In this document: positions 1,886 to 55,097 of the stretch, in pieces | How positions within the stretch are numbered: position 1 is the stretch's first letter | Layout: each line of letters starts with the position of its first letter | DNA from: an uncultured Clostridia bacterium | GTDB lineage: Bacteria > Bacillota > Clostridia > UMGS1810 | Direction of reading: 5' to 3' | Length of the DNA stretch: 64,000 bases | Assembly: GCA_934500875.1 (NCBI GenBank) | Contig: CAKSTL010000005.1 | Coordinates: 71,671-135,670, forward strand | The notes under the pieces: generated by a model | Databases searched by the model: none | What the model was told of the DNA's origin: nothing | Seen by the model: the letters and a program-made list of their open reading frames with translations, nothing else | Program-made: the position numbers and the translations under genes

Positions 1886-2101
1886 ATTATTTACCTTCCT
1901 GACAAAATCTCAAAATTATACATTCAATAGTTTAACATATTTTTACCATATAATCAAGCCATTTTTTTAATTTTATTTAAATTTCGCTTTTTAATTTCAG
2001 AAAATACAAAAAATTTTTTGAATTTATTGAAATTTTTTATCAGGATATAACATTTAAATCAGGTTAAGTTAAAAACGAGAAAAAAATTTGAGGTGAAAAA
2101 A

Positions 2102-3304
2102 GTGAAATTCAAAAAAATTACAATTTTTGTTCTGATAGCGGCAGTGTGCGCATTTTTTTCATATATGACGGTAAACGTTTTGGATATTGGCGGACGTCTT
2201 AAAAATTTAAAGGAGCAAAACATAGGCGGCAAGCCTTTTTCAAACCAGATCGAAGCAGGCGACAGCGGGGTTTTAAAAGACGGCGTTTATACCAGCGACA
2301 AGAAAAAACAGGACGCAAACATAAATCTTTTCGGCGTGCAGACAAAAGGTGCGGACTTTAAAATTCCGGCGGAAAAAAAGGTTATCGCCTGCGGAAACAG
2401 CATTGGCGTAAAGCTTTATACCGACGGCGTTCTGGTTGCGGACATCACCGGATTTGACACAAAGGACGGCAAAAACGTTTCGCCGGCAAGGGGCGCAGGG
2501 CTTAAGGCGGGCGATTTTATAACAAGCGCAGGCGGAAAAAAGATTACCGATATAAATTCTTTAAAAGAGCAGACGCAAAAATATGCCGGCAAAAAAATGA
2601 AGCTTAAATTTTTGCGCAATTCAAAGGAAAAAGAGGTTGAAATCGAGCCGAAGCAGGATAAAAACAGCTCGCTCTGGCGGCTTGGAATGTGGGCAAAAGA
2701 CAGCACCGCCGGCATTGGCACGCTTACCTTTTACGACCCTGCGACAAACACCTTCGGCGCACTCGGACACGGAATTTCGGGCGGCGACGGCGGAAATGTT
2801 CTTGCGGTTAAAAACGGCTCGGTTGTGCGTGCAAACATTATTGACGTAAAAAAAGGAACACCGGGCGACCCGGGCGAGCTTCAGGGAGTTTTTTCGGGAA
2901 CGGATTCAAAGATCGGCACAATCGCAAAAAATATAAAATACGGAATTTTCGGCACAACCGACGGCACGGTGCCTTCAAAAACCGAATACACCGTAGGCAC
3001 CGCCGACAAAATATCCGAGGGAAAAGCCTATATTTTAAGCAACATTTCGGGTACCGAGGTAAAAAGGTATGAAATAGAAATTTTGAAAGTAATGCGCTAC
3101 AACGAAAATTCGACAAAAGGAATGGTAATTAAGGTTACCGACAAGGAGCTTATTGAAAAAACGGGCGGAATCGTTCAGGGAATGAGCGGCAGTCCGATTA
3201 TCCAGAACGACCTTTTAATCGGCGCCGTTACGCACGTTTTTGTGAACGATCCCACAAAAGGATACGGAATTTTTCTGGAAACAATGTTAAAAAACGCAAA
3301 CTGA
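2102..3304 (+). CDS. spoIVB: SpoIVB peptidase (stage IV sporulation signalling serine protease)
   Basis: A PDZ-like segment (GLKAGDFITSAGGKKITDINSLKE) is followed by a peptidase S55 region (GIGTLTFYDP...GALGHGI, GMSGSPIIQNDLLIGAVTHV). The likely GTG start at 2102 follows a GAGGTG RBS. The ORF track starts at 2093. Confidence 0.85.
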   Translation: MKFKKITIFVLIAAVCAFFSYMTVNVLDIGGRLKNLKEQNIGGKPFSNQIEAGDSGVLKDGVYTSDKKKQDANINLFGVQTKGADFKIPAEKKVIACGNSIGVKLYTDGVLVADITGFDTKDGKNVSPARGAGLKAGDFITSAGGKKITDINSLKEQTQKYAGKKMKLKFLRNSKEKEVEIEPKQDKNSSLWRLGMWAKDSTAGIGTLTFYDPATNTFGALGHGISGGDGGNVLAVKNGSVVRANIIDVKKGTPGDPGELQGVFSGTDSKIGTIAKNIKYGIFGTTDGTVPSKTEYTVGTADKISEGKAYILSNISGTEVKRYEIEILKVMRYNENSTKGMVIKVTDKELIEKTGGIVQGMSGSPIIQNDLLIGAVTHVFVNDPTKGYGIFLETMLKNAN

Positions 3305-27892: not shown

Positions 27893-27934
27893 TTGAAAAA
27901 TTTTAGCGTTGGCTTTATAATAAACTTGTATAAT
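27893..27934 (+). promoter_or_regulatory. sigma-A type promoter(s) for the surface-protein locus
   Basis: TTGAAA (27893-27898), a 17 nt spacer and TATAAT (27916-27921) form one promoter. A second extended -10 TGTATAAT lies at 27927-27934. Confidence 0.5.
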
Positions 27935-28061
27935 TGGAAAAATGGCTTTAAATCCTTATAAGGCTGTTTTGCAAAAAGGAGGGATTTGGAAAAATCATTT
28001 CTTTGCAAGGTCATTTATACGAAACGTTTTTTAAAATTAAAAAAGGAGATGGAGAAAGATT

Positions 28062-29135
28062 ATGAAAAACATTTTCAAAAGAGCTTTGGCTCTCACAATG
28101 ACAACGGCTTTGTTCGCTGTTTCCGCTTTTGCAGCACCTGCACCTGTATACAACAGTGTATCTTATGATAAGACGACAGGTGAGCTTAAAGCAACGGTTT
28201 CGGGCTATGAACAGGGCAAGGACGCAACAATTCTTATTCTTAGAAAAGGTGTGGCACCCGCAACCGCAGGCAGTGATGATATTATTTATATCGATCAGAT
28301 TGACGGCAAAGACATTGCCGCAGACGGTACATACACATTTACCGCTCCCATTAAAGAAAGAGCGGCTGAAAAATCCGCTGCAGAAGTTAACCTTTATGTG
28401 GGCGGCGAAAACGTTACTGCGGCTAAGGTTTATACAAAAGCAGGCGACACAGGCGCAACCGATATCAACCTTTCGGACGGCGGCGATACACCCGAAGTTT
28501 CGTATGATGCATCTGTTCCGACAGGTACATATAAAACAATTGATGAAGCAATCGCTGTATTGGTTGTAACAAAGACAGAAGGCGCTACAACTACAACCCT
28601 TACTTCTTCCGACTACACGGTTGAAAAAGTGCAGGATGCAACAGATGCAAATAAGTATACTCTTATAATTAAAATCGGCGGCGCAGAAGTTGCAAGAACA
28701 ACTGCTACTGTTACTCCCGATACACCGACTCCGGGTACGGCAACAGGCATTAAGGGCGAAGTAAAATACGCTTTGAGTTCAGGCGACAAAGTTGCTCCTT
28801 ATGCATTGGTATTGGTAACAAAGACGAACAGTGCGGATATTGTTAAAACAGCTGTAACAGGCGCTGACGGTAAGTTTGAAATTGAAGGGCTTGACGCAGG
28901 CGATTACAGAGTGATTGTTAGATGGGTTCTCTTGCGTCCGGCTAGAGTAACAAACTATCCGAATGCTGTAACTACAGTGACAGTAACAGAAGGAAATATG
29001 ACAACGGCTGAAACAGACAGCAAAGGCTACATCCGCATAAGATCTGTGCTTACCGGTGATACGAACGAGGACGGTAAGGTTGATGGTACTGACTATTCAA
29101 ACGTTGTAAATAATTACGGTAAGTCTGTAAACTAA
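28062..29135 (+). CDS. secreted protein with CnaB/carboxypeptidase-regulatory-like beta-sandwich domain and a single C-terminal dockerin-like Ca-binding repeat
   Basis: A signal peptide (MKNIFKRALALTMTTALFAVSAFA) is present. A CnaB-like segment (KGEVKYAL...ADGKFEIEGLDAGDYRVIV) follows. The C-terminal DTNEDGKVDGTD plus DYSNVVNNYG resembles a dockerin F-hand. Confidence 0.6.
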   Translation: MKNIFKRALALTMTTALFAVSAFAAPAPVYNSVSYDKTTGELKATVSGYEQGKDATILILRKGVAPATAGSDDIIYIDQIDGKDIAADGTYTFTAPIKERAAEKSAAEVNLYVGGENVTAAKVYTKAGDTGATDINLSDGGDTPEVSYDASVPTGTYKTIDEAIAVLVVTKTEGATTTTLTSSDYTVEKVQDATDANKYTLIIKIGGAEVARTTATVTPDTPTPGTATGIKGEVKYALSSGDKVAPYALVLVTKTNSADIVKTAVTGADGKFEIEGLDAGDYRVIVRWVLLRPARVTNYPNAVTTVTVTEGNMTTAETDSKGYIRIRSVLTGDTNEDGKVDGTDYSNVVNNYGKSVN

Positions 29136-29230
29136 TCTGTATAGAAAGCTATGCAAATAAGATTGGGTTACCTCAATCTTATTTGCGGCTTTATTAATAA
29201 CTAACAACACTATATAGGAGGAACCAGTTA

Positions 29231-32200
29231 ATGAAAAATTTTAACAAGATTATCAGTTTAATAACTGTAGCAGTTCTTGTTCTGTCAATGATGGCAGTTC
29301 CCGCATTTGCCGTTACTGCAGTTAACACTATTCCCACATCACTCGGTGGAGAAAAAGTTGCTGTTACATATTATTCTGATGCAGCACTTTCAACCCCTAT
29401 TACTTCGGCAAATAAGGGTGATGAAATTTACGCAAAAGTAACACTTAATATTCCTACCGGTACGTTTTCAAAGCTTCAGGTAGCTCTCGCAGCTCAAAAT
29501 GCTACAATTGAGCAGTCTTTGGATACTTTTACTGCAAGTAAACCGGCAGAACTTTCAATATTTGAATATGCGGCAGTCGGCAACGAAATTTCTGCTGACA
29601 AAACAAGTGCAAAATTGTTTATCAGTAAGTCAACAGAAGGTCAGTTTGATTCGCCTAAAGACGCTTGGGCGGATTATGAACCTGATATGACAGGTCCGTG
29701 GTACAGCAATGTAGGAATTTATTCGTTTGATGTTAATGCATACAAATTAACAGTTACCGGCGATACAGGTAAAGTTGCCTTTAGTCGTGTATCGGGCGGC
29801 GAAAACGTACTCGAAATCGGTGAGTTTGACGTTGATAACTATACTACTGTACCTACTTCCTTCACTGTTGAAGATGCAGGTGTTACAATCGGTGGAAGTG
29901 AACCTGCAAAGAAAAAGGTATCGTATTCTGCTGCATGGACAGACAGCAGCGTAACATATGACGAATCTTTGGATGATGAAGCTCTTAAGGCAGCAATAAA
30001 AGCAAACCTCACGGTTAAAAAGCTTGTTGACGGCACACCTGAATCCACAAATCCGGTTTACGAAATTGTTATGGACAGAGCTGCTAAGACAATTAAAGTA
30101 ACTATAACAGATACGTTGCTTGCAGACGAAGAACTTGCAGTCGGCGCAGAAAAAGCATTTAATCTTAACTTTGATTATACTGCTAAAACGGATACTTATA
30201 CTCTTAAATCTATCAAATTCGGCGAAGAAGATATCACAGGTAAAACCGAATTTGACGTAGATTACACAAATTATAAAACTCTCGGCGATGTCGCAAATGC
30301 TATCACTGTTACAATGCTTAAAAACGGCACTGACGAAGTTCCGGCAGCGCTTGGCAGCGATTATGTTTTAAACTCTAAATTTGTTGAAAATGCAAATCGC
30401 TCAACACTTGAAATTAAATTTGAAGGCCTTGACGGTGCTATCAGCAGACTTAAAAACGAAGCTGCAAAGACATTTGTTGCTAACTGGAAAAATACAGAAA
30501 TTGTTTGGTCGAATGTCAAAGTTAATGTCCCCGACCCGTTCTCATTTGCCAAGAGTACAGTTTCGGAAAAGGTTATTAAAGACTCTATAACTGTTACAGG
30601 CGACAGAAAAGACGGCTTTAAAGACGTTGAAGAAGGCATTAAACTTACAGAGGGAGTACACTATACAGTTACGGTTCCCGCAGATTTGAAAAACGGCGAC
30701 GAGATTATCATTAAATTTAATGACGCTGTTGACAACCTTAGCACGGTAACTGATGTTACCAGATTTATTGAGATAACCGAAGACGAAATTACCTGGTCTG
30801 GTTATGAGGCTTCGTTTAAGGACGTAACAACATTTACAGGTAAAGAAACAGACGATTATATTAAGGGCAATGTTGTTGTTAAAGCGTTAAGAAGTGTGAA
30901 CGGCACTCCCGACAGTGAAAAAACAGCGATTTCGGGTTATGATGTTGCAATCACAAGAGCAGAGGGCGAAAACGCTTCAAAAGCTGTAATCACCTTCGGT
31001 GACGGCGAACACAAAGACGCTGCAGTTGACGATTTGACATTTACCGTTCAGCCGAATTACGATACGGTTGTTGCTGATATGCCCAAAACTTCGTTTGCCG
31101 AAGGCGCAACAGATGAAGAAATTTTGAATGCATTGAAAGTTACAGCTAAAAAATGGTTCTACGGTTCTGACAAACCGGAACTGGCAGAAACTGTAACACT
31201 TGAACGCGGTTCGGATTACACCGCAGTTCTTGAAGGCAACACAGTCAGAATTTCGGCTGCCGGTGCTGATTTTAATGAAGTTATCGGCAAGACATTTACT
31301 ATTGTTAAAGGCGCAAAAGCTACGGCTGTTATCGCATTTACAAATGCAACAGATAACAAAATCAACAAAGGCACAGCTTTGAAAGGTAAACTTTCTTTAG
31401 ATACCACAGAAAATATTTACGGCGGTAAAATTACACTTTCAACCACAAAAGGTGAATTTGATGAATTTACCATCAACAGCAATTGCGAGATCAAGAATGT
31501 AGATAAGACTGTTTCCGGTAAGTATACATTCGAGTTTACGAAAAAAGCCGGTGTGGCATCTGTAAGCGACATTGGTACATTCACAATTAACACTGATTCT
31601 ATGAACAAAGATGACGAAATCAGGGTTGAGGTTGAGTCTGTTGCTCTTGACACTGTAGGCGGAGGCGATTTTGTTGACGTTCCTTCGGCTAAGGGTGATG
31701 CGAAAACCGCTACCGTTACGGAAACAGCTCCTGCTCCGACAGAAGCTAAGCTTCCCGACGCTTCGTTTGATATCAAAACTCTCGGCGCATTAAATTCTGT
31801 TATTGACAGATTTAAAGACGCTGTTACACTTGTAAACACAACAGATTCTTCGGTTGTTGCAGATGCTGCCGCTCTTAAGGCTGCTATCACAATTGACGAA
31901 ACAGACCTTAATAACAAGAAACTTGTTATCAAGGATTTGACAGTTCCGGCTTTGAGCACAACAGCTTATACTTATGAGCTTGCTGTTGCAGTTCCGGGTT
32001 ACACAAAAGCTAAAGTTACATTCACAGTAACATACAACGAAACAACTAACGATTATGATGTTACAGGCGGTACAGTCGGCGAAGGCGCAAAGAAAAACAC
32101 AATCTATGCCGGCGACAACGATTCTGACAACACAATCACAGCTACTTCGGTTACAGCTAACGACTATGCTAACCTCGTTGCAAAATTCGGCGAAGCTGTT

Positions 32201-32335
32201 ACAGGAAACGAAGCATTTGATATCTACCAGAACGCAGAAACAACCATTGACCGTTACGACATTATGACTATGGTTTGGATGTTTGAAAACTATGGTATGA
32301 AACTTGTCAGCGAAGCAGGTATTATAGCTGACTGA
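29231..32335 (+). CDS. large secreted T/V/D/K-rich multidomain surface protein with a divergent C-terminal dockerin-like module
   Basis: The 1034 aa product has a signal peptide and repetitive beta-rich Ig-like sequence. The C-terminal GDNDSDNTITATS...DYANLVAKFG and IDRYDIMTMVWMFENYG align to the dockerin-like tail of the 28062 protein. Confidence 0.55.
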   Translation: MKNFNKIISLITVAVLVLSMMAVPAFAVTAVNTIPTSLGGEKVAVTYYSDAALSTPITSANKGDEIYAKVTLNIPTGTFSKLQVALAAQNATIEQSLDTFTASKPAELSIFEYAAVGNEISADKTSAKLFISKSTEGQFDSPKDAWADYEPDMTGPWYSNVGIYSFDVNAYKLTVTGDTGKVAFSRVSGGENVLEIGEFDVDNYTTVPTSFTVEDAGVTIGGSEPAKKKVSYSAAWTDSSVTYDESLDDEALKAAIKANLTVKKLVDGTPESTNPVYEIVMDRAAKTIKVTITDTLLADEELAVGAEKAFNLNFDYTAKTDTYTLKSIKFGEEDITGKTEFDVDYTNYKTLGDVANAITVTMLKNGTDEVPAALGSDYVLNSKFVENANRSTLEIKFEGLDGAISRLKNEAAKTFVANWKNTEIVWSNVKVNVPDPFSFAKSTVSEKVIKDSITVTGDRKDGFKDVEEGIKLTEGVHYTVTVPADLKNGDEIIIKFNDAVDNLSTVTDVTRFIEITEDEITWSGYEASFKDVTTFTGKETDDYIKGNVVVKALRSVNGTPDSEKTAISGYDVAITRAEGENASKAVITFGDGEHKDAAVDDLTFTVQPNYDTVVADMPKTSFAEGATDEEILNALKVTAKKWFYGSDKPELAETVTLERGSDYTAVLEGNTVRISAAGADFNEVIGKTFTIVKGAKATAVIAFTNATDNKINKGTALKGKLSLDTTENIYGGKITLSTTKGEFDEFTINSNCEIKNVDKTVSGKYTFEFTKKAGVASVSDIGTFTINTDSMNKDDEIRVEVESVALDTVGGGDFVDVPSAKGDAKTATVTETAPAPTEAKLPDASFDIKTLGALNSVIDRFKDAVTLVNTTDSSVVADAAALKAAITIDETDLNNKKLVIKDLTVPALSTTAYTYELAVAVPGYTKAKVTFTVTYNETTNDYDVTGGTVGEGAKKNTIYAGDNDSDNTITATSVTANDYANLVAKFGEAVTGNEAFDIYQNAETTIDRYDIMTMVWMFENYGMKLVSEAGIIAD

Positions 32336-32450
32336 TATCATTAAAGTGTAAGTAAAAAACAGTTTTTCTCACAGCGAGAGCGGAAAACCGTTCTCGCTTG
32401 AGGACTATTTAAACGATTAAAAATGTGAATACAATAGCGAGGATATACAT

Positions 32451-33956
32451 ATGAAAAATTTTAAAAAGCATATATCATTGGTTTTGGCACTTGCAATGCT
32501 TATATCGGTTATCTCGGTAAGCGCTTTTGCTGCCAATCCTTATTCGGAGTATACCCCATTGACGGGAACAATTTCGCTTGAGGACAATACAATCAAAATC
32601 AGAAAAGACGATACCTTTAAGGTTTATGTTTCGGCAAACCTTGACGATATTTCAAAAGACAGAGTTACGGCGTTCCATATTTTGGGAACTGTTTCCGATA
32701 ATCTTGAAATTGTAGGTTCGGGTTTCGCCGCTGATGAAGATTTGACAAAACTTCCCGCCGGCGGAGATATTGACGGAATAAACTATGAAAAAATGATTCA
32801 TAACAGCAAAACTTCGGATAAAACAATAGATTTTACCGCTGTTGTTATGAAAAATGCAGAAGGCAAAGCAATTGAAAAAGACGCCGACGGCAAAGCAGCC
32901 CTTATCTGGCTTGAGCTTAAGGCCGTAGGAACGGGCGTTCTTTCGGTTAACATTGCCGATTCGTATGTAAGAACAGCTTTTGAAGATAACGCCGCTGATA
33001 AGTTTTGTATGTCGGCAAGTTTTTCAAAGAGAACATACACAAGTGATGACGGCGACGGCAGACGTCCGACAGGAACAAGAGGAAATACCGGCAAGGCAGG
33101 TTCGATAGACAAGGTTACCGTTGACAAGATTGACGGCGCCGAGGTTTCAATCGACCAGGATAACAAAAAAGTTACAATCACGCTTCCCGAAGGCGCAAAC
33201 CTTACGGATTTGGTTCTTAGCATAGGCTATACAGGAAGCACAATTTCCTATAAAAAGGGCGATACAATCGACCTTACCGAGCCTAAAGAAATCACCGTAA
33301 AAGGCACCGACGGCAAGACTGTTACTTATACGGTTGAGGCAAAGATTAAAACAACCGAGTCGACTCCGAGTGACGACGGCAGCGAATACAGTGACGTTGA
33401 AAAGTCGAGATGGTCTTACGATATGATTGACGCCATGATTAAATCCGGACTTGTTGACGGATACGGCAAGGACGAGGCAGGCAAACTTATCGTTAAACCG
33501 ACAGGTCTTATCACGAGAGAAGAGGCTGCTAAAATTTCTGTGACGGCATACGGCGTTGAAATTGATAATTCGGCTGTTGCTCCGTTTGCAGACGCTGATG
33601 CAATCTCCGATTGGGCACGTCCCTATGTTGCGGCAGGCGCAAACCATCCGAACAGAATGGTAAGAGGCTACGCTGATGACAACACGTTCCGTGGCAAGAG
33701 AAACGTTACGAGAGAAGAGCTTGTAACTATGATTATCAATACGTTCGGTTTCGGTGCAGACGCTGATGCTAAACTTTCGTATGCAGACAATGACGAAATT
33801 ACCTGGTCCGCAGGCTATATTTCAAAGGCTGTAAGCCTCGGCGTAGTTCTCGGATATGAGGATAACACATTTAAACCGTCGCAGTATGTGACAAGAGAAG
33901 AAGCGTTCACAATGTTTGAGCGTGCTCTTAAAATTTACAGAAGTCTTACTGCGTAA
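32451..33956 (+). CDS. SLH-domain cell-surface protein with N-terminal cohesin-like domain
   Basis: A signal peptide is followed by a cohesin-like module (VTAFHILGTVSDNLEI...ALIWLELKAVGTG) and an Ig-like domain. Three SLH repeats follow (YSDVEKSRWSYD..., FADADAISDWARPYV..., YADNDEITWSAGYI...). Confidence 0.7.
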   Translation: MKNFKKHISLVLALAMLISVISVSAFAANPYSEYTPLTGTISLEDNTIKIRKDDTFKVYVSANLDDISKDRVTAFHILGTVSDNLEIVGSGFAADEDLTKLPAGGDIDGINYEKMIHNSKTSDKTIDFTAVVMKNAEGKAIEKDADGKAALIWLELKAVGTGVLSVNIADSYVRTAFEDNAADKFCMSASFSKRTYTSDDGDGRRPTGTRGNTGKAGSIDKVTVDKIDGAEVSIDQDNKKVTITLPEGANLTDLVLSIGYTGSTISYKKGDTIDLTEPKEITVKGTDGKTVTYTVEAKIKTTESTPSDDGSEYSDVEKSRWSYDMIDAMIKSGLVDGYGKDEAGKLIVKPTGLITREEAAKISVTAYGVEIDNSAVAPFADADAISDWARPYVAAGANHPNRMVRGYADDNTFRGKRNVTREELVTMIINTFGFGADADAKLSYADNDEITWSAGYISKAVSLGVVLGYEDNTFKPSQYVTREEAFTMFERALKIYRSLTA

Positions 33957-33987
33957 ATTTAAGTCTGACAGTACAAAGACCCGCTAA

Positions 33988-34017
33988 AGCCACTTCCCGA
34001 TAAGTAAGCATTGCCTT
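33988..34017. repeat. left arm (arm plus inverted loop) of the palindromic repeat family, split copy
   Basis: AGCCACTTCCCGATAAGTAAGCATTGCCTT matches the reverse complement of 15045-15074 with about 3 mismatches. Confidence 0.5.
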
Positions 34018-34238
34018 AAAAACATATTTTTTGCGCCTTTCTGCGTTAAAAAAACTCGCAATCCGTCAGGATTACTCGCTTTTTTGCCTTGAAATTCATC
34101 AAAAAATCTTGTTTTTAAGGTGCAAAGCAGTTTTGAATATCGGATTATTTTACGATTCAGACAAGAAATAAAATCTGCCATTATGCTTGCCGCATATGGC
34201 AGGTTTTTGACGTAGTATGAATTTAAAATACGGTTTCA

Positions 34239-34267
34239 AAACCAATGCTTTCTTATCGAGAAGCGGC
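34239..34267. repeat. right arm (loop plus arm) of the palindromic repeat family, split copy
   Basis: AACCAATGCTTTCTTATCGAGAAGCGGCT matches 15062-15091. It forms an inverted repeat of about 30 bp with 33988-34017 around a 221 bp insert. Confidence 0.5.
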
Positions 34268-34347
34268 TCAAGCTGCTCCTATTTAAGTAGGAGCAGTCGA
34301 GTGGGTTTTGTTTTTCTAAAGTAAAAATATACAACAGGAGCGATAAA

Positions 34348-35643
34348 ATGAAAAAATTTTTAACATCTCTGCTGATTGCCGTTATGCTTGCATCATCCTT
34401 CACATCTGCGCTTGCCGCAGCAACGCCGTATGATGAATATACCAAGATTTCGGGCAAAATCGAGCGTGACGGCTCGGGCGATATCAAGGTCGGCGATAAG
34501 GTGAGGGTTAATATCTGCGTAAATTACGGTGACAGCACCCCGATTGAAAAAATTACTGCGTTCCATATTCTCGGAAATTGCAGCGATAACCTTAAAATAA
34601 GCAGTTTTGATTTTTGCGACGCTTCAAAAAAGCCGCAGAATACGATAACTTCAAAAACGAAGGACCATACAATTGATTATCTTTCCGCAAACACGCCGAA
34701 CGAAGAGGCTGTTACGGCGGACTCCGACGGCTTCGGCAGACTTATTTGGGTTGAGTTTGAGGCGGTTTCTTCGGGAACGGCAAAAATTCACCTTGACGGG
34801 TCGTATATCAGAACCGACACGGCAGACGAGCCGCAGTATAAAAGATGTCTTTCGGTGAGCGATTTTGATATAACCGTTTCGTCAAACGGCAGCCCGGACG
34901 ACAGCAACGATAACAGCGGCGGTAACGGCAGCAGTTCCGGCGGCAGTTCGTCAAGACCTTCGGGAAACAAGGGCGGAACGGCTGTTTCTGGCGGAACGGC
35001 GAAAAACGACGACGCCAAGACGGACGATACCAAAACCGATAACACCAAAACTGACGAAAACAACGGCGCTCAGCCTGCTTCGCACAATTTTGCGGACGTC
35101 CCGAAAGACCACTGGGCATACGAGTATGCAAACTATCTTTTCGACAGGAAGATAATTTCGGGCGCAGGCACAAACGAATCGGGCGAGGTATTTTTAAATC
35201 CTGATTCGGCGATAACGAGGGAAGAGGCGGTTAAAATTGCGGTTGCGGCGGCAAATATTGCGCTTGATAACGAATTTGACCTTGCGTTTGCCGACAAAGA
35301 TTTTGTGTCAGACTGGGCAAAACCGTATGTTTTTGCCGGCGTTAAGAGCGGAATTCTGACGGGTTACGGCGAGGATAACACCTTCAGACCGAAAAATCAA
35401 ATCACACGTGAAGAGCTTGTTAAGGTAATTGTAAGCGCTTTCGGCATTGAAATAAGCGAAAATGCCGACGTTTCCGCCTTTTCGGACGCAGACAAAATCA
35501 CTTGGTCGGCACCCTATATAGCGGCGGCTGTCAAAAGCGAAATTATTAAAGGTTATGCCGACGGTTCGGTAAAACCGCAGAGCAGCGTTACGAGAATTGA
35601 GGCAATAACTATGTTTGCAAGAGCGCTCGGCAGCGCAAAATAA
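34348..35643 (+). CDS. SLH-domain cell-surface protein with N-terminal cohesin-like domain (paralog of 32451..33956)
   Basis: A signal peptide is present. The N-terminal domain is collinear with the upstream paralog (PY.EYT, ITAFHILGNCSDNLKI, RLIWVEFEAV, GSYIRT). An S/G/N/T-rich linker precedes three SLH repeats (FADVPKDHWAYEYANYL..., FADKDFVSDWAKPYV..., FSDADKITWSAPYI...). Confidence 0.7.
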   Translation: MKKFLTSLLIAVMLASSFTSALAAATPYDEYTKISGKIERDGSGDIKVGDKVRVNICVNYGDSTPIEKITAFHILGNCSDNLKISSFDFCDASKKPQNTITSKTKDHTIDYLSANTPNEEAVTADSDGFGRLIWVEFEAVSSGTAKIHLDGSYIRTDTADEPQYKRCLSVSDFDITVSSNGSPDDSNDNSGGNGSSSGGSSSRPSGNKGGTAVSGGTAKNDDAKTDDTKTDNTKTDENNGAQPASHNFADVPKDHWAYEYANYLFDRKIISGAGTNESGEVFLNPDSAITREEAVKIAVAAANIALDNEFDLAFADKDFVSDWAKPYVFAGVKSGILTGYGEDNTFRPKNQITREELVKVIVSAFGIEISENADVSAFSDADKITWSAPYIAAAVKSEIIKGYADGSVKPQSSVTRIEAITMFARALGSAK

Positions 35644-35660
35644 GCTTTTTTAAAACAGCA

Positions 35661-35695
35661 AAACGGAATGTCTGATGTGACATTCCGTTTTTTTG
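35661..35695 (+). terminator. rho-independent terminator after the SLH-protein gene
   Basis: The stem AAACGGAATGTC/GACATTCCGTTT is followed by TTTTTT. Confidence 0.6.
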
Positions 35696-35783: not shown

Positions 35784-37505
35784 TTACTGCCTGTAGAGCA
35801 TCATAATCATTTGAATATACACGGCGGCGCTGACGCCGAAATCACGGACGTTCGGACGTTTAACCGACGGGATATACGCAAACAATGCGTCGCCCTTGCG
35901 CCTTAATTTTGACGGCGAAACGGTTGATTTTGAATCGTAAAATTCATATATTACGCCGTCATTTTCATACCATTTTGTAATGTTTGAAACCGTGTCGCAA
36001 ACAATCTTGTGCGCCTCTTTTTTGTAGCCGTAGTCATAAAGCGACAACGCAACAAAGTACGAATAAAACGGATGAGCCGCACCGTGCCACATTCCGCCGT
36101 CAAATTTTTCGTCATCCTTTGAAAGGCTGGGAACGGGAAACGGAGTGAAAAACTCGGCGGTGTTGAAAATGTGGTTTGTAACAATGTAATCGGCACGTTT
36201 TTTATCGCAAAATCCGACAAAAAGCGGCAGAAACGACGCAGGTGTTTTAACCTTTATAAGTTTGTCGGAATTTGCACATCTGTCATAGTAAAATCCGTCA
36301 TCCTCGTCGTAGAGATAGCGGTTAACCGCCTCTTTTATGCGGTCGTAAATCACGCTCCAGTAAAGGTGTTCGCCCGATTTTCCCAGAATTTCGGCAATCT
36401 CGGAAAGCGCCTTTGCCTCGTTTGCCATATAACACGAAAAGTCGAGCGCATAAATTTTGGAAATATCGTCAAACCGTGGCGAACTGTCCATTCTGCTTTC
36501 TTCGCAGCGGTTTTCAACCTCCGAAATTTTTATTTTCCATTCAAACAGCATTTTATCCTCTGCCGAGCGGTTTTCGATAAAATAGTTGAGATATTTTTTG
36601 AGCTTGTCAAAGCTTTCCGAAAGAATCGAAATATCGCCCTGAGCCTTAAAAAGTCTTAAAATTCCCCACGCAAGAACGGGCGGATTTGCCGCCTCTCCCT
36701 TATAATTATAAAGTCCCTCGCCGGGGATAAATCCGTTTTCGTCCTGCAAATCGAGCGCTGACATCAGGCATTGTTTTGCAGCGTCATAGGATACATAACG
36801 CATTGAATCGGCATACAAAACGGCGTCAAAAAGGGTGTATTTTTCATTCGGAATACGTGAAGGAGTACACCACATACCCTTGAAAAATCCTTCGGGCGAA
36901 AAAGTGAGCGATTTTAAAACCGAAAAACTTTTTGCAAACAGCGAGGAGATGTTTTTGGGAATATTTTCCAAAATAGGCAGTTTTGCAAAAAAGTCAAGTT
37001 TGTTTGAAATTTCACGGTTTATCTCTTCGGTAAATGCATTTTCGGCATCCTCCGCCGCATTTTTTCCGTATGCGAAAGCCGATATTTTATATTCCTCGTT
37101 TTCTTCGGAATAAAGGGCAAAAACGCCATTTTCGGCAGAGTAGATTTCAGTATTTCCCTTCCTTATATATTCGGTTTTCTCGTCAAATTCCAAAACAAGA
37201 CGGTATGCCTTTGAATGACGTATCAGCACGGCGTTTTGCCGTACAAAAATAAATTCCGCCGCCGTAATAATTCCGCTGTCGTCAACGATATTTGCCTTGA
37301 TAAGGTCGGACGAAACAACTTCAAAAATCACGTCGGAAACATTTTTGAGCGCAATGTGCAAATATGCGCAAACAGGCGTGTTAAAGGCTAATCCGAGCCT
37401 GTCGGACAAAAGATTTGCACAAATTGCTTCATTATATATATTGTCGCCGTCGAGTGCGGAAAACGCAAACGCTGCGCCGCCGCCCCAAACATTTGGAAGT
37501 GCCAT
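35784..37505 (-). CDS. cytoplasmic (alpha/alpha)6-barrel glycoside hydrolase, GH63/GDE-like family (family level only)
   Basis: The roughly 573 aa product has no signal peptide. Its composition and motifs resemble six-hairpin glycosidases (GMWHGAAHPFY, acidic residues in the EW.I..SE and DSSPRFDD regions). The start was moved to the ATG at 37505 after a GGGGGA RBS. Confidence 0.5.
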   Translation of the reverse strand: MALPNVWGGGAAFAFSALDGDNIYNEAICANLLSDRLGLAFNTPVCAYLHIALKNVSDVIFEVVSSDLIKANIVDDSGIITAAEFIFVRQNAVLIRHSKAYRLVLEFDEKTEYIRKGNTEIYSAENGVFALYSEENEEYKISAFAYGKNAAEDAENAFTEEINREISNKLDFFAKLPILENIPKNISSLFAKSFSVLKSLTFSPEGFFKGMWCTPSRIPNEKYTLFDAVLYADSMRYVSYDAAKQCLMSALDLQDENGFIPGEGLYNYKGEAANPPVLAWGILRLFKAQGDISILSESFDKLKKYLNYFIENRSAEDKMLFEWKIKISEVENRCEESRMDSSPRFDDISKIYALDFSCYMANEAKALSEIAEILGKSGEHLYWSVIYDRIKEAVNRYLYDEDDGFYYDRCANSDKLIKVKTPASFLPLFVGFCDKKRADYIVTNHIFNTAEFFTPFPVPSLSKDDEKFDGGMWHGAAHPFYSYFVALSLYDYGYKKEAHKIVCDTVSNITKWYENDGVIYEFYDSKSTVSPSKLRRKGDALFAYIPSVKRPNVRDFGVSAAVYIQMIMMLYRQ

Positions 37506-38238
37506 ATTTTTTCCCCCGATAATCAGTTTTTTATACAAAATTTTTTAACAGAATACAGAAATTTTTGTTTTATGAAGTTATTGTACCATATTTTTCAAAA
37601 ATATGCAACCCCGGCGCCGTTTTCGGATGTTTCGGGACATTAAAAAGGTAAGATTTGTGCGGTTTTAACAGGCAAAATCCGTTGCAAAATTGAGATTAAT
37701 ATTCAAAAATCACGGCAAAAAACCTTTGCCGAATGTTAACTTTGCTCCCACTTGTGTGAAATTCGGGGCTGATTTCGGACAAAAAACAGTCGAAAAATGT
37801 CGTTTTTGAGGTAAATTTATGGGATTTTTCATAAATTTTAATATTTTTGCGCATAAAAACAGCCGTCTTTGTGTAATTTTACGCACAGCAAAAACGCCCG
37901 AAGCTTAAATTTGCGATTTTCAGCATAATAAAGGCAAAAACGGCGGTTAAAAAAACTTAAAATTGACGGTGAAAAGGTGCAAAAAAATGTGCGTCGGAAG
38001 TGCAAAAACGGCTGTAAAATTTAAAGTTGTTAAAATTTTGTTAAATTTGCACTAAAATCTTAACAATTTTGAAAAACAGGTATTTTTGCCTTAAAAAGGC
38101 GATATACTGTATTACAAAGGCAATTACGGACACTTTTTTATGCAAAAAACGAAAATTTTGAAAAACTTAAAAGTTACAAAATAGTTAAAAAACTTTGTGG
38201 AAATTAACAATAACTTTTTTCCATATTTTGTAAAAAAT

Positions 38239-45788: not shown

Positions 45789-46841
45789 ATGGTTATTAAC
45801 GCAGCGGCAAGCACACGCAGCTATGACATAATTATCGAAAACGGAATTTTTGACAAAATCGGCGGCATAATAAAAGATTTTTCAAACGGCGCAAAGGTGT
45901 TTTTTGTTATAGACGAAAACTTTTTCGATATCTTCGGCGAAAGGCTTAAAGCCATTATTTCGGGCAGCGGAATTGACTTTTTATACTATGTGCTTGAGTC
46001 GGGCGAAAAATCAAAATGCAAAGAAAAGCTTTTTGAAATTTATTCTTGTCTTGCAAAGCACAAAATTTCAAGAAAAGATACCGTTGTTGCGCTGGGCGGC
46101 GGCGTTTGCGGCGACCTTGCGGGTTTTGCGGCGGCGACGTATCTCAGGGGCGTTAAGCTTATTCAAATTCCCACAACGCTTCTTGCCCAGGTTGACAGCT
46201 CGGTAGGCGGCAAGGTTGCAATCGACCTTCCCGAAGGAAAAAATCTTGTCGGAAATTTCTATCCTCCGCATATGGTAATTATCGACCCGACCCTTTTAAA
46301 AACCCTTCCCGAAAGCGTTTTTAACTGCGGTATGGCAGAGGTTATAAAGTACGGCGCAATATATGACGCAAGCCTTTTTGATGCGCTTTGCGACAAAAAA
46401 TATACCGAAAAAAACCTTGAAAAAATAATCGCAAGATGCGTTGATATAAAGCGCATTATCGTGCAGAACGACGAGTTTGACACGGGCGAGCGAATGATTC
46501 TTAACTTCGGTCATACCTACGGTCACGTTGTTGAAAAGTATTTTAACTACGAAAAATACAGCCACGGCGAGGCGGTGGCAATAGGAATGGCGCATATAAC
46601 CAAAATTTCGCAGGATGCGGGCATTTCGGAAAAAGGCACTTACGAAAGGCTTTGCACACTTTTAAAAACCTATTCTCTTATGTTTGACGACGTAAAAATT
46701 CCGTATGAGGCGGCAAAAGAAACGCTTCTTCTGGATAAAAAGAGCGAAACGGAGTATATAAACTATATCGTTTTGGAAAAAATAGGAAAATGCAGGATTT
46801 TAAAGCTTAAAAAAGAGGATAATTTTTTATGGAAAAACTGA
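45789..46841 (+). CDS. aroB: 3-dehydroquinate synthase
   Basis: The motifs GGGVCGDLAGFAAATYLRG and GGKVAIDL, plus metal ligand histidines, are present. Confidence 0.9.
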   Translation: MVINAAASTRSYDIIIENGIFDKIGGIIKDFSNGAKVFFVIDENFFDIFGERLKAIISGSGIDFLYYVLESGEKSKCKEKLFEIYSCLAKHKISRKDTVVALGGGVCGDLAGFAAATYLRGVKLIQIPTTLLAQVDSSVGGKVAIDLPEGKNLVGNFYPPHMVIIDPTLLKTLPESVFNCGMAEVIKYGAIYDASLFDALCDKKYTEKNLEKIIARCVDIKRIIVQNDEFDTGERMILNFGHTYGHVVEKYFNYEKYSHGEAVAIGMAHITKISQDAGISEKGTYERLCTLLKTYSLMFDDVKIPYEAAKETLLLDKKSETEYINYIVLEKIGKCRILKLKKEDNFLWKN

Positions 46842-48091
46842 CTTTGACAGGCAAAAAGGATTTTAAAAAGCGCATTTTCGCACCGCCGTCAAAATCGTAT
46901 TCGCACAGGATGATACTTTCTGCGGCGCTGTCGGACGGTATATCGAGAATTGAAAATCTCATTTTTTCAAAAGACGTGCTTGCAACGCTTGATTTTGCGA
47001 AAAAATGCGGAGCGTATGTTTTTCGGGGCGAAAATTTTGCCGAAATAAAGGGCGGAACGGCGCCTGATGAGGCTGAAATTTTCTGCGGCGAATCTGCCTC
47101 CACATTAAGATTTGTTATTCCCGTTCTTGCCGCAAAGGGCATAAAGGCGCACATCACCGGCGCAGGCAGGCTTATGCACCGTCCGCTTGATGTGTATACC
47201 GAAATTTTTGACGAAAAGGGCATAAATTACCGATACGAAAAGGGCGGATTTTTTGACATAAATTCTTGTATTCCGAGCGGAATTTACAATGTCAGAGGAG
47301 ATGTTTCGTCGCAGTTTATAACGGGTCTTTTGTACGCTCTGCCCCTTCTTTCGGGCAATTCCGAAATAAACATCACAACGCCCCTTATGTCAAAGCCGTA
47401 TATTGACATCACGCTGGACGTTTTAAAACGCAGCGGTATAGAAATTGAAAACGATAACTTCAAAACCTTTAAAATAAAGAAAAATCAAAAATATCTGCCG
47501 TTAAACGCCGCTGTTCCGGGCGATTTTTCGCAGTGCTGTCCGTTTGTTGCGGCGGCGCTTTTTGCAGGGCATATCGAAATGCTTAACCTTGATTTGAAAT
47601 CTCTTCAGGGTGACAAAAAAATAATCGAATATTCAAAGGCGCTCGGAGGAAGGATTTTTGCAAACGAGAGCAAAATTACGGTGGAAAAATCAAACCTTAC
47701 GTCGGGCAAAACGTTCGATATTTCGGATTGTCCCGATATTGCGCCCGTTTTTTCGGTAATATGCGCTCATGCTGAGGGCGAAACAATTCTTACCGGCACA
47801 AACAGGCTGAAAATCAAGGAGTGCGACAGAGAGGCTGCGATTGTATCAACGCTTAAAAAGCTTGGCGCAGAGTGCTCTGCCGGTGATGACTATATAAAAA
47901 TAAAGGGCGTAAAAACCTTTAACGGCGGCACATTCGATTCGTTCAACGACCACAGAACGGCAATGGCTTTGTGTGCGGCGTCGGTGTGCGCAAACGAAAA
48001 AATCACCGTTTTAAATCCTATGTGCATTGAAAAATCGTATCCTTCATTTTACGACGATTTTAAGGATTTTACCTATCAGACAAGGAGTTAG
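46829..48091 (+). CDS. aroA: 3-phosphoshikimate 1-carboxyvinyltransferase (EPSP synthase)
   Basis: The motifs PPSKSYSHRMIL and DHRTAMA are present. The length is 420 aa. Confidence 0.9.
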   Translation: MEKLTLTGKKDFKKRIFAPPSKSYSHRMILSAALSDGISRIENLIFSKDVLATLDFAKKCGAYVFRGENFAEIKGGTAPDEAEIFCGESASTLRFVIPVLAAKGIKAHITGAGRLMHRPLDVYTEIFDEKGINYRYEKGGFFDINSCIPSGIYNVRGDVSSQFITGLLYALPLLSGNSEINITTPLMSKPYIDITLDVLKRSGIEIENDNFKTFKIKKNQKYLPLNAAVPGDFSQCCPFVAAALFAGHIEMLNLDLKSLQGDKKIIEYSKALGGRIFANESKITVEKSNLTSGKTFDISDCPDIAPVFSVICAHAEGETILTGTNRLKIKECDREAAIVSTLKKLGAECSAGDDYIKIKGVKTFNGGTFDSFNDHRTAMALCAASVCANEKITVLNPMCIEKSYPSFYDDFKDFTYQTRS

Positions 48092-51994: not shown

Positions 51995-53533
51995 ATGGCG
52001 GAAACGGTAAAAATTTTTGACACAACCTTAAGGGACGGCGAACAGTCGCCCGGCTGCACTATGAATCTGAAAGAAAAGCTTCAGGTTGCACGAAAGCTTG
52101 AAGAGCTTAACGTTGATATTATCGAAGCAGGCTTTGCGGCGTCAAGCAAGGGCGATTTTGCCTCGATAGAAGAAATTTCAAAAATCGTAAAAAATGCGTC
52201 GGTTGCAGGTCTTTCACGCCTTGTCGAAAGCGATATAGACCTTTCGGCAGACGCTTTAAAAGACGCTGCAAGCCCAAGACTGCACCTTTTTATCGCAACA
52301 TCTCCCATACATATGAAGTATAAACTTAAAATGAGTCCCGACGAGGTGATACAAAGCATAGAGAGAGCGGTAAAATACGCAAAAAATAAAATCGGCGACA
52401 TAGAATTTTCAGCCGAGGACGCAACAAGAAGCGATTTTGACTTTCTTATGCGTGCCGTAAACACTGCGGTTGCGGCAGGGGCGACAACCATAAACATTCC
52501 CGATACGGTGGGATATTCCACGCCGCTTGAATTTTCGGCGTTTATCAAAAAAATTATGGAAAATATTATTTCTCCCGAAAAAATTACCCTTTCGGTGCAT
52601 TGCCACAACGATTTGGGTCTTGCCACGGCAAATTCGCTTGCAGCGGTAAAATCGGGCGCACGCCAGATTGAGTGCACCGTGAACGGAATAGGCGAGAGGG
52701 CAGGAAATGCGGCGCTTGAGGAAATTGTTATGGCGCTTAATGTGCGGAATAATTTTTATGACGCAAAAACCAATATAAATACCTCGTTTATCGTGCCGGC
52801 TTCAAGGACGGTCAGCGCCGTTACGGGTTCTGTTGTTCAGCCAAACAAGGCGATTGTCGGAAAAAATGCGTTTTTGCACGAGGCGGGCATACATCAGCAC
52901 GGCATTATGGAAAACAAGGCGACATACGAAATTATGACTCCCGAAGAGGTCGGCTACAAACAGCAGCAGCTTATTTTGGGAAAACATTCCGGAAGGCACG
53001 CTTTTGAAAAGTGGCTTACAGAGAACAATCACGTTGTGACCAAGGAGGAAGAAAAAGAGCTGTTTAAAAAGTTCAAGCAGCTTTGCGACAAGAAAAAAAC
53101 CATTACAGAGCGTGATTTGGAGGCTCTTGTGCAGAATAAAATTTCTGTCGGCGAAGAAAAATTCAAGCTTAAACGCTTTGTTATAAACGTTGGAAACACA
53201 ATAACCAGCACGGCGGTTTTGACCGTTACTGCGGACGGAAAGGACATTGAGGACGTTGCAATCGGCGACGGCCCGGTTGACGCTGCGTTTAAGGCGATTG
53301 AAAAAATTGCCGGCGTTACGCCATCTCTTGACGATTACAACATCCGTTCCATCACCCAGGGCGTGGATTCGCTCGGCGAGGCGCTTGTCCGCCTTAAATA
53401 CAAAGACCGCTATTTTAAGGGCAGAGGTCTTAGCACCGACGTTATTGAGGCAAGCATTTTTGCCTATATAGACGCTGTAAACAAACTTGAGGCGGTTGTA
53501 TCTGAAGGGGGTGCGGATGAAAATGAAGGTTGA
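51995..53533 (+). CDS. leuA: 2-isopropylmalate synthase
   Basis: The motifs DTTLRDGEQSPG and HCHNDLG are present. A C-terminal LeuA regulatory/dimerisation domain is present. The length is 512 aa. Confidence 0.85.
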   Translation: MAETVKIFDTTLRDGEQSPGCTMNLKEKLQVARKLEELNVDIIEAGFAASSKGDFASIEEISKIVKNASVAGLSRLVESDIDLSADALKDAASPRLHLFIATSPIHMKYKLKMSPDEVIQSIERAVKYAKNKIGDIEFSAEDATRSDFDFLMRAVNTAVAAGATTINIPDTVGYSTPLEFSAFIKKIMENIISPEKITLSVHCHNDLGLATANSLAAVKSGARQIECTVNGIGERAGNAALEEIVMALNVRNNFYDAKTNINTSFIVPASRTVSAVTGSVVQPNKAIVGKNAFLHEAGIHQHGIMENKATYEIMTPEEVGYKQQQLILGKHSGRHAFEKWLTENNHVVTKEEEKELFKKFKQLCDKKKTITERDLEALVQNKISVGEEKFKLKRFVINVGNTITSTAVLTVTADGKDIEDVAIGDGPVDAAFKAIEKIAGVTPSLDDYNIRSITQGVDSLGEALVRLKYKDRYFKGRGLSTDVIEASIFAYIDAVNKLEAVVSEGGADENEG

Positions 53534-55097
53534 AATATTTGACTGTACGCTCCGTGAGGGGGTTCAGTCGCAGGGGATAAGTATGAGCAACGAGGACAGG
53601 CTTAAAATCGCAAAAAAGCTTGACAGTATCGGAATTGATTATATCGAAGCCGGAAATCCTGCCTCAAACCCCAAGGAAACGGAATTTTTCGGCTCTGTGA
53701 ACGGCACGGGATTTAAAAAATCGAAAATTGTCGCTTTCGGCAGCACAAGAAGGGCGCATACCGAGGTGTCAAAGGACGAAGGGATTAAAAATCTTATAGA
53801 TGCCGGCACCGATATCGTTACGGTTTTCGGAAAATCGTGGGATTTTCACGTTACCGATATCCTCGGCGCATATCTTTACGAAAATTTAAATATGATTTAC
53901 GACACGGTGTGTTACCTAAAAGAAAACGGCAAAGAGGTTTTTTATGACGCAGAGCATTTTTTTGACGGTCTTAAGCATAATAGGGAATATGCCCTAAAAA
54001 CCATTGAGGCGGCATATTACGGCGGTGCGTCGAGAATAATTTTGTGCGATACAAACGGCGGCGCATTTCCGGATGAGATTGAAAAGGCTGTATGCGAGCT
54101 TTCGGAAAAATATAAAAATATGATTGGCATACACTGCCACGACGACTGCGGAATGGCGGTTGCAAATTCTCTTGCGGCGGTAAAGGGCGGCGCTGTTATG
54201 GTTCAGGGCACGCTTTGCGGCTGCGGCGAGAGGTGCGGTAATGCAAATCTTGCCACGGTTATAGCAAATCTGCAAACAAAAATGGGCATTGACGCAATAG
54301 GCGATAACCTTAAAAACCTTACCGAAGCGTGCGTGTATGTATCGGACGTTGCAAACCAGACTCTTTCGCCCAATGCGCCGTATGTGGGCAGAAACGCATT
54401 TGCGCACAAGGGCGGTATGCATATTGACGCTGTGTGCAAAGAGCCGAAATCGTTTGAGCATATCCCTCCCGAAACGGTGGGCAACAAGCGAAGAATTCTT
54501 GTGTCGGAGGTAAGCGGAAAAAGTGCGGTTTATTCAAAAATACAAAAGCTTTTTCCCGAGATTAAAAAAAGCGACCCTGCGGTTGCAAAAATTACAAAAC
54601 GCTTTAAAGAGCTTGAGCATTTGGGATATCAGTTTGAGGCGGCGGAGGGCAGCGCAGAGCTTGTAATACGAAAAATAATCGGCAAATATTCCACCGTTTT
54701 TACGCTTAATATGTTCAGGATTTTAAGCGAACAGGACAGCAGCCGCAAAAGCAATCTTACAACGGCGCTCATAAGCATAAGCGTAAACGGAAAGTCTGAG
54801 ATTACCGCCGTTGAAGGAAACGGCCCGGTAAACGCACTCGACAAGGCGTTACGAAAAGCGGCGGAGGTTTTTTATCCGCAGATTAAAAACGTAAAACTTT
54901 TGGATTACAAGGTAAGGGTTATAGATTCCAAAGCAACGGCTTCGACGGTACGGGTGCTTATTGAATCGTGCGACGGCAAGGAACGCTGGACAACCGTCGG
55001 CGTGTCGGACGACGTTATCAAGGCAAGCTGGATTGCGCTTGTCGATTCTATTGAACTTAAAATAATAAAAGACTCGGAAAAAGGTGAAAAACAATGA
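53517..55097 (+). CDS. cimA: (R)-citramalate synthase-type LeuA-family protein
   Basis: The motifs DCTLREGVQSQG and HCHDDCGMAVANSLAAVKGG are present. The roughly 526 aa length and sequence are typical of CimA (TIGR00977-like). It overlaps the leuA stop. Confidence 0.75.
   Translation: MKMKVEIFDCTLREGVQSQGISMSNEDRLKIAKKLDSIGIDYIEAGNPASNPKETEFFGSVNGTGFKKSKIVAFGSTRRAHTEVSKDEGIKNLIDAGTDIVTVFGKSWDFHVTDILGAYLYENLNMIYDTVCYLKENGKEVFYDAEHFFDGLKHNREYALKTIEAAYYGGASRIILCDTNGGAFPDEIEKAVCELSEKYKNMIGIHCHDDCGMAVANSLAAVKGGAVMVQGTLCGCGERCGNANLATVIANLQTKMGIDAIGDNLKNLTEACVYVSDVANQTLSPNAPYVGRNAFAHKGGMHIDAVCKEPKSFEHIPPETVGNKRRILVSEVSGKSAVYSKIQKLFPEIKKSDPAVAKITKRFKELEHLGYQFEAAEGSAELVIRKIIGKYSTVFTLNMFRILSEQDSSRKSNLTTALISISVNGKSEITAVEGNGPVNALDKALRKAAEVFYPQIKNVKLLDYKVRVIDSKATASTVRVLIESCDGKERWTTVGVSDDVIKASWIALVDSIELKIIKDSEKGEKQ

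Follow-up and report, generated by a model that had tools for sequence, protein, structure and literature searches.

We find that four consecutive genes (p1, p2, p3 and p4) in a 64,000-nucleotide stretch of DNA from an uncultured Clostridia bacterium (contig CAKSTL010000005.1 of assembly GCA_934500875.1, positions 71,671 to 135,670; the whole stretch is hereafter called the window) probably constitute a self-contained, non-enzymatic cohesin-dockerin operon for the surface display of an adhesin or fibril. As an initial annotation of this DNA had reported, the four open reading frames (ORFs) are consecutive and co-oriented on the + strand (Table 1), and each opens with what reads as a Sec-type signal peptide (a K/R-rich N-terminus, a hydrophobic core and A-x-A). 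The features described in that annotation go far past what chance would produce. From profile comparisons and structural models, the operon is predicted to encode three sockets (cohesins) and two plugs (dockerin tails), an internal cohesin in p2 adding one socket to those assumed in the annotation. Since the Pfam cohesin family is silent at this locus and the Pfam dockerin family scores below its cut-off, the identity of these domains rests on predicted structure and on lineage-specific profiles.

The products of p3 and p4 are paralogous from end to end, sharing 37-39% identity in their N-terminal domains, and each ends, as previously described, in three S-layer homology (SLH) repeats, a region that matches the SLH structures of Bacillus anthracis Sap (6bt4/3pyw, E=7e-9). 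The spacer between cohesin and SLH repeats differs, being an immunoglobulin (Ig)-like domain in p3 and a low-complexity linker in p4. When the p3 N-terminal domain is modelled, cohesins come out clearly ahead of all other fold classes, with pilins and adhesins next, and the modelled domain is a nine-stranded jelly-roll beta-sandwich that superimposes best on solved cohesins. The p4 N-terminal domain can be placed in the same modelled cohesin-fold family because it is homologous to the p3 module. An SLH-anchoring scaffoldin is defined as a protein with at least one cohesin and SLH repeats (PMC11557425), and p3 and p4, each of which unites the two in one secreted protein, correspond to that class with their cohesins identified by fold. 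The earlier description of these N-terminal domains as cohesin-like holds at the level of the fold and fails at that of the Pfam family. At the sequence level, the ~170-residue domain belongs to no Pfam or NCBIfam family, and comparison with PDB sequences gave nothing significant, single sequences yielding SLH matches only. Furthermore, a word-indexed protein database search returned almost no relatives, and an exhaustive hidden Markov model (HMM) search of 1.84 billion sequences with the p3/p4 N-domain profile retrieved about 10 cluster representatives and reached no canonical cohesin. The sole PDB match of the p3/p4 cohesin profile, weak (E=0.2) and taken here as a lead only, covers residues 1126-1222 of 9qf3_A, in the C-terminal region of Ruminococcus bromii Amy4, which we take to hold an amylosome cohesin; it hints at a distant link between p3/p4 and Ruminococcus-type cohesins.

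The p2 protein is built from a signal peptide, an N-terminal beta domain, five repeats of ~90 aa, a cohesin, X and PEGA-like domains and a dockerin, and has 23 full-length homologs, with identity down to 31%. Its five related repeats bear out the earlier view of p2 as an Ig-like repetitive protein: in the AlphaFold2 (AF2) model they reach a predicted local distance difference test (pLDDT) of about 75-88, and in fold comparison they resemble chains of Ig-like domains. The internal cohesin can be located at residues ~688-835 because the profile of that stretch matches the Clostridium perfringens cohesins 2vo8 and 2ozn at the top of a PDB comparison (E=0.014), its sole sequence-profile matches, and in the domain model cohesins again stand clearly ahead of all other fold classes, followed by pilins and adhesins. 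No significant relationship was detected when the p3/p4 cohesin profile was aligned to each p2 segment (hhalign), and the link between the p2 and p3/p4 cohesins is therefore one of fold alone. For the p3 cohesin as for that of p2, the closest structures are non-cellulosomal modules of C. perfringens (NanJ/NagJ/NagH; 2vo8, 2w1n, 2ozn, 2jh2). These likewise work outside plant-fibre degradation, but they are borne on secreted glycoside hydrolases and assemble enzyme complexes, are not SLH-anchored, and have no structural-protein cargo. With one cohesin-fold module and a C-terminal dockerin-like module, p2 has the layout of a monovalent adaptor scaffoldin, defined by one cohesin and one dockerin (PMC11557425); it differs from that class in the ~650 residues (variable tip and five repeats) that it carries N-terminal to the cohesin, in having no known enzyme partner, and in the cassette-type diversification of its tip.

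The C-terminal tail of p2, previously described as a divergent dockerin-like module, is kept in 23 of 23 homologs and consists of two loop-plus-helix units, the tandem arrangement by which dockerins are recognised; in sister clades its loop 1 is canonical (GDVNGDGVIDAVDY / GDVNGDGVIDAVDYADLV). A profile built from diverse p2 tails ranks the Cel48 dockerin 2y3n_B first among PDB structures (E=6.5e-6, the whole module spanned), with calmodulins about 300-fold weaker (E of at least 2e-3); an earlier, less diverse profile had not separated dockerins from calmodulin.

The smallest product, p1, comprises in order a signal peptide, an N-terminal beta domain, a domain weakly resembling the p2 repeats (probability 25-35%, suggestive of a relationship), a transthyretin-like domain and a single dockerin repeat. 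The initial annotation had called p1 CnaB-like, which is right for the fold clan, given a marginal CarboxypepD_reg match, but not for CnaB itself, as CnaB-type relatives stay below threshold (SpaA 16.8 vs 23.1, SdrD_B 15.8 vs 29.7). Its dockerin-like calcium-binding loop stands: the p1 loop (DTNEDGKVDGTD) and those of all orthologs fit a single F-hand, D-x-[DN]-x-[DN]-G-x-[IV]-x-x-x-D, with Asp at position 12 and a helix following. With a profile built from six orthologous tails, the top 16 PDB matches are all dockerins (E 1e-9 to 6e-3; CelS 1daq at E=1e-9) and generic EF-hand proteins first appear at E=0.015; by this measure the tail is specifically dockerin-like, not merely EF-hand-like. Dockerin_1 is the recurrent best, though sub-threshold, Pfam match for tails of the p1 and p2 types. 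By their family profiles both tails read as dockerin-type F-hand modules, the window p2 departing from the canonical loop pattern.

Instead of the two tandem repeats of ~22 residues expected of a dockerin, p1 has one. Its stop codon falls where a second repeat would start, every ortholog likewise has a single repeat, and the best pairwise alignment of p1 with p2 joins equivalent C-terminal stretches, p1 stopping where repeat 2 of p2 would begin. The p1 tail accordingly reads as a naturally truncated dockerin of the kind represented by the group-2 dockerins of Ruminococcus flavefaciens (PMC12270676; 9gvb), which also place a single calcium loop and repeat on non-catalytic proteins; 9gvb_B is itself among the matches of the p1 tail profile. 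These natural single-repeat dockerins bind the cohesin of a cell-anchoring scaffoldin, and one cohesin can accommodate two of them; in the CelS dockerin, the N-terminal half is enough for wild-type affinity (PMC12270676). However, the counterpart of a group-2 dockerin is the C-terminal half of a group-4 dockerin, whereas the p1 repeat aligns with repeat 1 of p2 and best with repeat 1 of the CelS dockerin. If the assignment is correct, p1 would provide a second, independent natural single-repeat dockerin.

Comparative genomics of the four-gene block reveals the cassette in six lineages or more and in two different chromosomal neighbourhoods. The genes stand in the order p1-p2-p3-p4 in the window and in loci L001, L002/L003 (from a Hadza gut sample), L004 (NCBI metagenome-assembled genome (MAG) GCA_964319035.1), L007/L008 and L010/L011, with partial cassettes in L006 and L009. 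This order persists even where p2 identity is 31-39% (39% between the window and L001, 32% between the window and L002/L003). The cassette of L010/L011 occupies the same trxB-flanked position as in the window, and that of L007/L008 lies in another neighbourhood (murC, uvrBA, rpoB). Each locus pairs a small protein ending with one F-hand and a large protein ending with two, and p1 orthologs are present in every complete cassette. Additionally, the anchor cohesins split into two orthologous groups of old origin, a p3 type and a p4 type, and the retention of both argues for distinct partners. All sources are MAGs of uncultured 'Clostridia/Clostridiales bacterium' or gut metagenomes, and the database labels of family proteins are either absent or those of a generic SLH protein.

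The only match among 185,579 species-representative genomes is CP091729.1 (L005, 'MAG: Clostridiales bacterium isolate nC33_bin.2', a complete genome), in which the cassette genes are split into many short ORFs with both dockerin tails still recognisable; the breaks look like assembly indel errors and not real pseudogenes. The most distant member of the family, P0033, stands alone beside an AraC-type regulator in L009 (1-21200, GCA_054290445.1), near an 805-aa secreted protein with a Cu_amine_oxidN1 domain and a serpin. The same assembly also holds a P0032-type cassette, in which a 1233-aa protein with a two-repeat dockerin tail is followed by an SLH-cohesin protein, and one genome can thus hold several copies of the system.

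Variation within p2 is concentrated at one end of the protein. Mean identity within the window clade rises from 64% in the N-terminal domain through 79-90% in the repeats to 95-99% in the cohesin, X, PEGA-like and dockerin domains (84-97% over p2 outside the N-terminal domain). Among the same strains, and for clusters defined at 90% identity or more, identity reaches 98-99% in the p3/p4 cohesins, about 99% in the SLH regions and 100% in the p1 tail. Among homologs P0003-P0025 the N-terminal domain behaves as an interchangeable cassette, with at least five discrete allele types in the window clade. P0014 and P0015 are 93% identical outside this domain and 35% inside it, and the N-terminal domain of P0014 is 65% identical to a window-clade allele, while the remainder of that protein, which comes from another species, is 33% identical. 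This pattern suggests that the N-terminal domain is exchanged or recombined between lineages and is under diversifying selection as an exposed tip, and an identity gradient of this shape is what we would expect of a conserved anchoring base that carries an exposed tip open to exchange.

A working model can be drawn from these parts. Both p3 and p4 would be secreted and, by analogy with established SLH biology, held non-covalently on a cell-wall polymer by their three SLH repeats, each presenting one N-terminal cohesin outward. The C-terminal two-repeat dockerin of p2 would plug into one anchor cohesin, its stalk of ~1000 residues projecting the five repeats and the hypervariable N-terminal tip off the cell, and the single dockerin repeat of p1 would plug into the other anchor or into the internal cohesin of p2. 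That internal cohesin could also recruit proteins encoded elsewhere. The tip would be the working end, whether as an adhesin or ligand-binding domain or as a target of phage or antibodies, and would diversify by cassette exchange as the plug-and-socket parts stay fixed. What the analysis itself establishes is the gene structure, the SLH repeats, the cohesin folds, the dockerin-type tails, the conserved cassette and the identity gradient along it; from these we infer physical binding between plugs and sockets, their pairing, its calcium dependence and an adhesive role.

Sortase pili and MSCRAMM-type adhesins offer a parallel, for they too combine an Ig-like stalk with a distal variable or binding domain, but the locus has neither an LPXTG motif nor a sortase, and attachment would be non-covalent, through cohesin-dockerin contacts and SLH repeats. 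A bolder proposal, to which we give only modest credence, is that the locus uses the cohesin-dockerin pair to do non-covalently what sortases do in building pili, rather than to display enzymes. Copies of p2 would be chained head-to-tail by their own cohesin and dockerin, or stand singly; in either case they would sit on the two SLH anchors and be capped or decorated by p1 through its half-dockerin, perhaps with two p1 tails per cohesin by analogy with the tripartite mode of R. flavefaciens. The resulting fibre or coat would bear a tip cassette traded between species, changing adhesion specificity or allowing escape from phage or immunoglobulin A.

Several observations weigh against a dedicated cohesin-dockerin display system without enzymes. 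Pfam PF00963 gives no match at E<=1 for p2, p3, p4 or their orthologs. The Dockerin_1 model (PF00404, gathering score 22.9 bits) finds no match in the window p2, scores 13-18.9 bits on orthologs and so always falls below the cut-off, and on p1 covers profile positions 2-21 of 57 only, at 16.0 bits. In the window clade the p2 tail has a 5-aa insertion in loop 1 and a non-canonical loop 2, which makes calcium binding by this tail uncertain, and AF2 models the tail as two helices (977-990 and 1008-1028) with a pLDDT below 50. The profile of the p2 N-terminal domain, the presumed working end, has no match in the PDB. Finally, the census of enzymatic cargo is confined to the window and 179 kb of related loci.

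No catalytic domain was found in p1-p4 by Pfam, NCBIfam or fold comparison, in agreement with the earlier view that the dockerin-bearing partners are not glycoside hydrolases. No dockerin-type F-hand was found in the window or the related loci beyond the p1 and p2 orthologs, and no dockerin-fused carbohydrate-active enzyme in the operon, the window or the related loci, an absence that holds locally. On this scale the non-cellulosomal, adhesive or surface-decorating role first suggested for the locus is supported, and the domain searches gave neither of the outcomes that the annotation had named as refuting it, N-terminal domains unlike cohesins or tails unlike dockerins. One candidate for cargo was considered, a GH63/MGH1-like glycoside hydrolase (35784-37538, - strand) that is convergent to the operon and also neighbours the cassette in L001 and L004, though in neither L002 nor L007. 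It has neither a signal peptide nor a dockerin, and for that reason is probably cytoplasmic and not cargo.

The census bears on the possibility that the cassette supplies the anchoring core for a larger, cellulosome-, amylosome- or mucinolysome-like enzyme complex, in which dockerin-fused enzymes encoded elsewhere would load onto the p2 cohesin or onto p3/p4, and p2 would be a true adaptor scaffoldin. Such a complex would fit the layouts of p2 (monovalent adaptor) and p3/p4 (SLH-anchoring) under the published definitions (PMC11557425), and since the operon encodes three cohesins but two dockerin tails, it formally leaves one socket without a plug. Moreover, divergent gut cohesin systems long escaped sequence methods (PMC13463774), and gut Clostridia are still yielding new enzyme-loaded systems (PMC12997984). 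Nevertheless, neither the window nor the surroundings of the related cassettes hold a further dockerin-type F-hand, the adjacent GH63-like gene is unsuited for the reasons above, the cassette is compact and moves as a unit, and a hypervariable tip suits recognition or adhesion better than enzyme scaffolding. On balance we consider an enzyme complex unlikely.

Relative to the SLH-anchoring scaffoldins of Acetivibrio (Clostridium) thermocellus (SdbA, OlpB, Orf2p and the monovalent OlpA and OlpC), the cohesins of the locus are only 8-15% identical and lack a PF00963 match, their family is tiny and confined to uncultured gut Clostridia, and their partners are non-catalytic, with neither a CipA-like multi-cohesin scaffoldin nor a carbohydrate-binding module. 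The R. bromii amylosome and the Limousia mucinolysome (PMC4611034, PMC12997984) are closer in that they also occur in gut Clostridia and have cohesins poorly detected by standard HMMs, yet they are defined by dockerin-fused amylases or mucinases, none of which is seen at the locus.

A further possibility is that p2, with p1, forms the main surface coat of the cell, an S-layer-like lattice or sheath held to the SLH anchors by cohesin-dockerin contacts, with the cohesin and dockerin of p2 joining subunits. S-layer proteins typically vary from strain to strain by cassettes in an exposed domain. The operon has a strong promoter match, a leader of ~140 nt and a strong ribosome-binding site, as well as a housekeeping chromosomal position and vertical inheritance, and the presence of a cohesin and a dockerin in one protein would permit head-to-tail chaining. 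Foldseek matches of p2 include the assembly domain of the B. anthracis S-layer protein Sap, but this is only one among many generic matches to multi-Ig chains, and the AF2 model of p2 has a predicted template modelling score (pTM) of 0.28, at which domain arrangement is uninformative; we regard a main coat as decidedly improbable. Least probable is that p1-p4 are independent wall-associated proteins without mutual binding, their cohesin folds serving another role such as carbohydrate binding or spacing and their F-hand tails acting as calcium-dependent stabilisers. The failure of the Pfam cohesin and dockerin models and the non-canonical loops of the window-clade p2 tail would suit this, but both modelled domains rank clearly closer to cohesins than to any other class of fold, the p1 tail resembles dockerins specifically and not EF-hands in general, plug and socket genes strictly co-occur in fixed order in distant lineages, and near-invariance falls exactly on the tails and the cohesins.

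To our knowledge, cohesin-dockerin pairs have been described almost exclusively as what holds enzyme complexes together. SLH-anchoring and adaptor scaffoldins, truncated dockerins and non-cellulosomal cohesin-dockerin pairs have all been described before, as have cohesins invisible to HMMs (PMC13463774). The novelty lies in finding them together in one compact, enzyme-free operon that has been conserved by vertical descent, would display a protein whose tip recombines, and is built on sequence families absent from domain databases. If the display reading is correct, the cohesin-dockerin pair would also be a general surface-display or adhesion device of gut Clostridia, in which all plug proteins are structural. 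Two cohesin families and one dockerin family undetectable by standard HMMs would be added, in support of the view that such systems are much under-counted, and the three sockets and two plugs could provide compact orthogonal parts for protein engineering. Should dockerin-fused enzymes exist genome-wide, the locus would instead be the anchoring core of a new enzyme complex, a useful but more ordinary outcome.

Table 1 Coordinates of the operon, its genes, protein domains and candidate regulatory features in the window
Feature	Position	Strand	Evidence or remark
Sigma-70-like promoter, TTGAAA-17-TATAAT (candidate)	27893..27921	+	11/12 consensus matches, region's best; ~140 nt 5' of p1 start codon
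p1, secreted non-catalytic protein, 357 aa	28062..29135	+	
p1 transthyretin/prealbumin-like domain, aa 230-308	28749..28985	+	CarboxypepD_reg E=8e-8, 32.9 bits vs cut-off 32.3 (marginal)
p1 C-terminal single dockerin repeat (predicted), aa 326-357	29037..29132	+	GDTNEDGKVDGTDY + short helix
p1-p2 intergenic hairpin, 16-bp	29152..29187	+	-30.4 kcal/mol, z=-6.2; weak T-tail
p2, secreted multi-domain stalk protein, 1034 aa, with cohesin and dockerin (adaptor-scaffoldin-like)	29231..32335	+	
p2 N-terminal beta-rich domain, hypervariable tip, aa 36-225	29336..29905	+	
p2 stalk, five related ~90-aa alpha/beta repeats, aa 226-687	29906..31291	+	hhalign probability 68-96% between repeats
p2 internal cohesin-fold module, aa ~688-835	31292..31735	+	
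p2 linker domains, X and PEGA-like beta, aa 836-955	31736..32095	+	weak PEGA matches; 95-96% conserved within clade
p2 C-terminal divergent two-repeat dockerin-like module, aa 956-1034	32096..32332	+	
p3, SLH-anchoring monovalent scaffoldin-like protein, 501 aa	32451..33956	+	
p3 N-terminal cohesin-fold module, aa 28-200	32532..33050	+	
p3 middle Ig-like spacer domain, aa ~205-301	33063..33353	+	sub-threshold DUF6242 E=6e-5; DUF5018 in ortholog P0030
p3 three SLH repeats, cell-wall anchor	33378..33929	+	E=7e-24, 83.9 bits, 3 stretches
p4, second SLH-anchoring monovalent scaffoldin-like protein, 431 aa	34348..35643	+	ancient p3 paralog
p4 N-terminal cohesin-family module, aa 25-186	34420..34905	+	homology to p3 module
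p4 low-complexity S/G/N/D/T/K-rich linker, aa 187-245	34906..35082	+	sequence reading
p4 three SLH repeats	35083..35631	+	E=7e-32, 109.6 bits, 3 stretches
Bidirectional intrinsic-terminator-like hairpin at operon end	35660..35691	.	13-bp stem, T-runs on either strand

The genomic setting is that of a chromosomal housekeeping region, as noted previously. Genes 5' of the operon are cdsA, dxr, an M50 protease, an M14 peptidase, apbE and trxB, and those 3' of it are the GH63-like enzyme, a G5/3D protein, eda, recA and recX; more distant window genes include the shikimate pathway, leuA, lacZ, dnaG, sigA and mutS2. The G+C content shows no island signature, and an Rfam scan of the window found no RNA family. 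A SpoIVB peptidase gene (2093-3304) marks the host as a spore-former, as had been supposed.

Two intergenic structures within the operon may affect its expression or history. The hairpin between p1 and p2 is possibly an attenuating terminator, which could limit read-through and raise the ratio of p1 to p2. The spacer between p3 and p4 (33957-34347, 391 nt) folds very strongly on both strands (-126 and -137 kcal/mol, z about -9.7) as a long imperfect nested palindrome (~33976-34270), followed by a separate hairpin (34273-34296) and a T-run before the p4 ribosome-binding site. Orthologous spacers are far shorter (12-260 nt), and the spacer has no second copy within the window and no Rfam match; it may be an inserted element resembling a miniature inverted-repeat transposable element, or a large terminator or insulator.

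Elsewhere in the window, two tandem LeuA/HMGL-like paralogs overlap by 47 nt (51995-55097), and there are two genes of the EPSP-synthase family (46829-48091 and 61811-63082), one of which lies within the shikimate cluster, the other being likely MurA.

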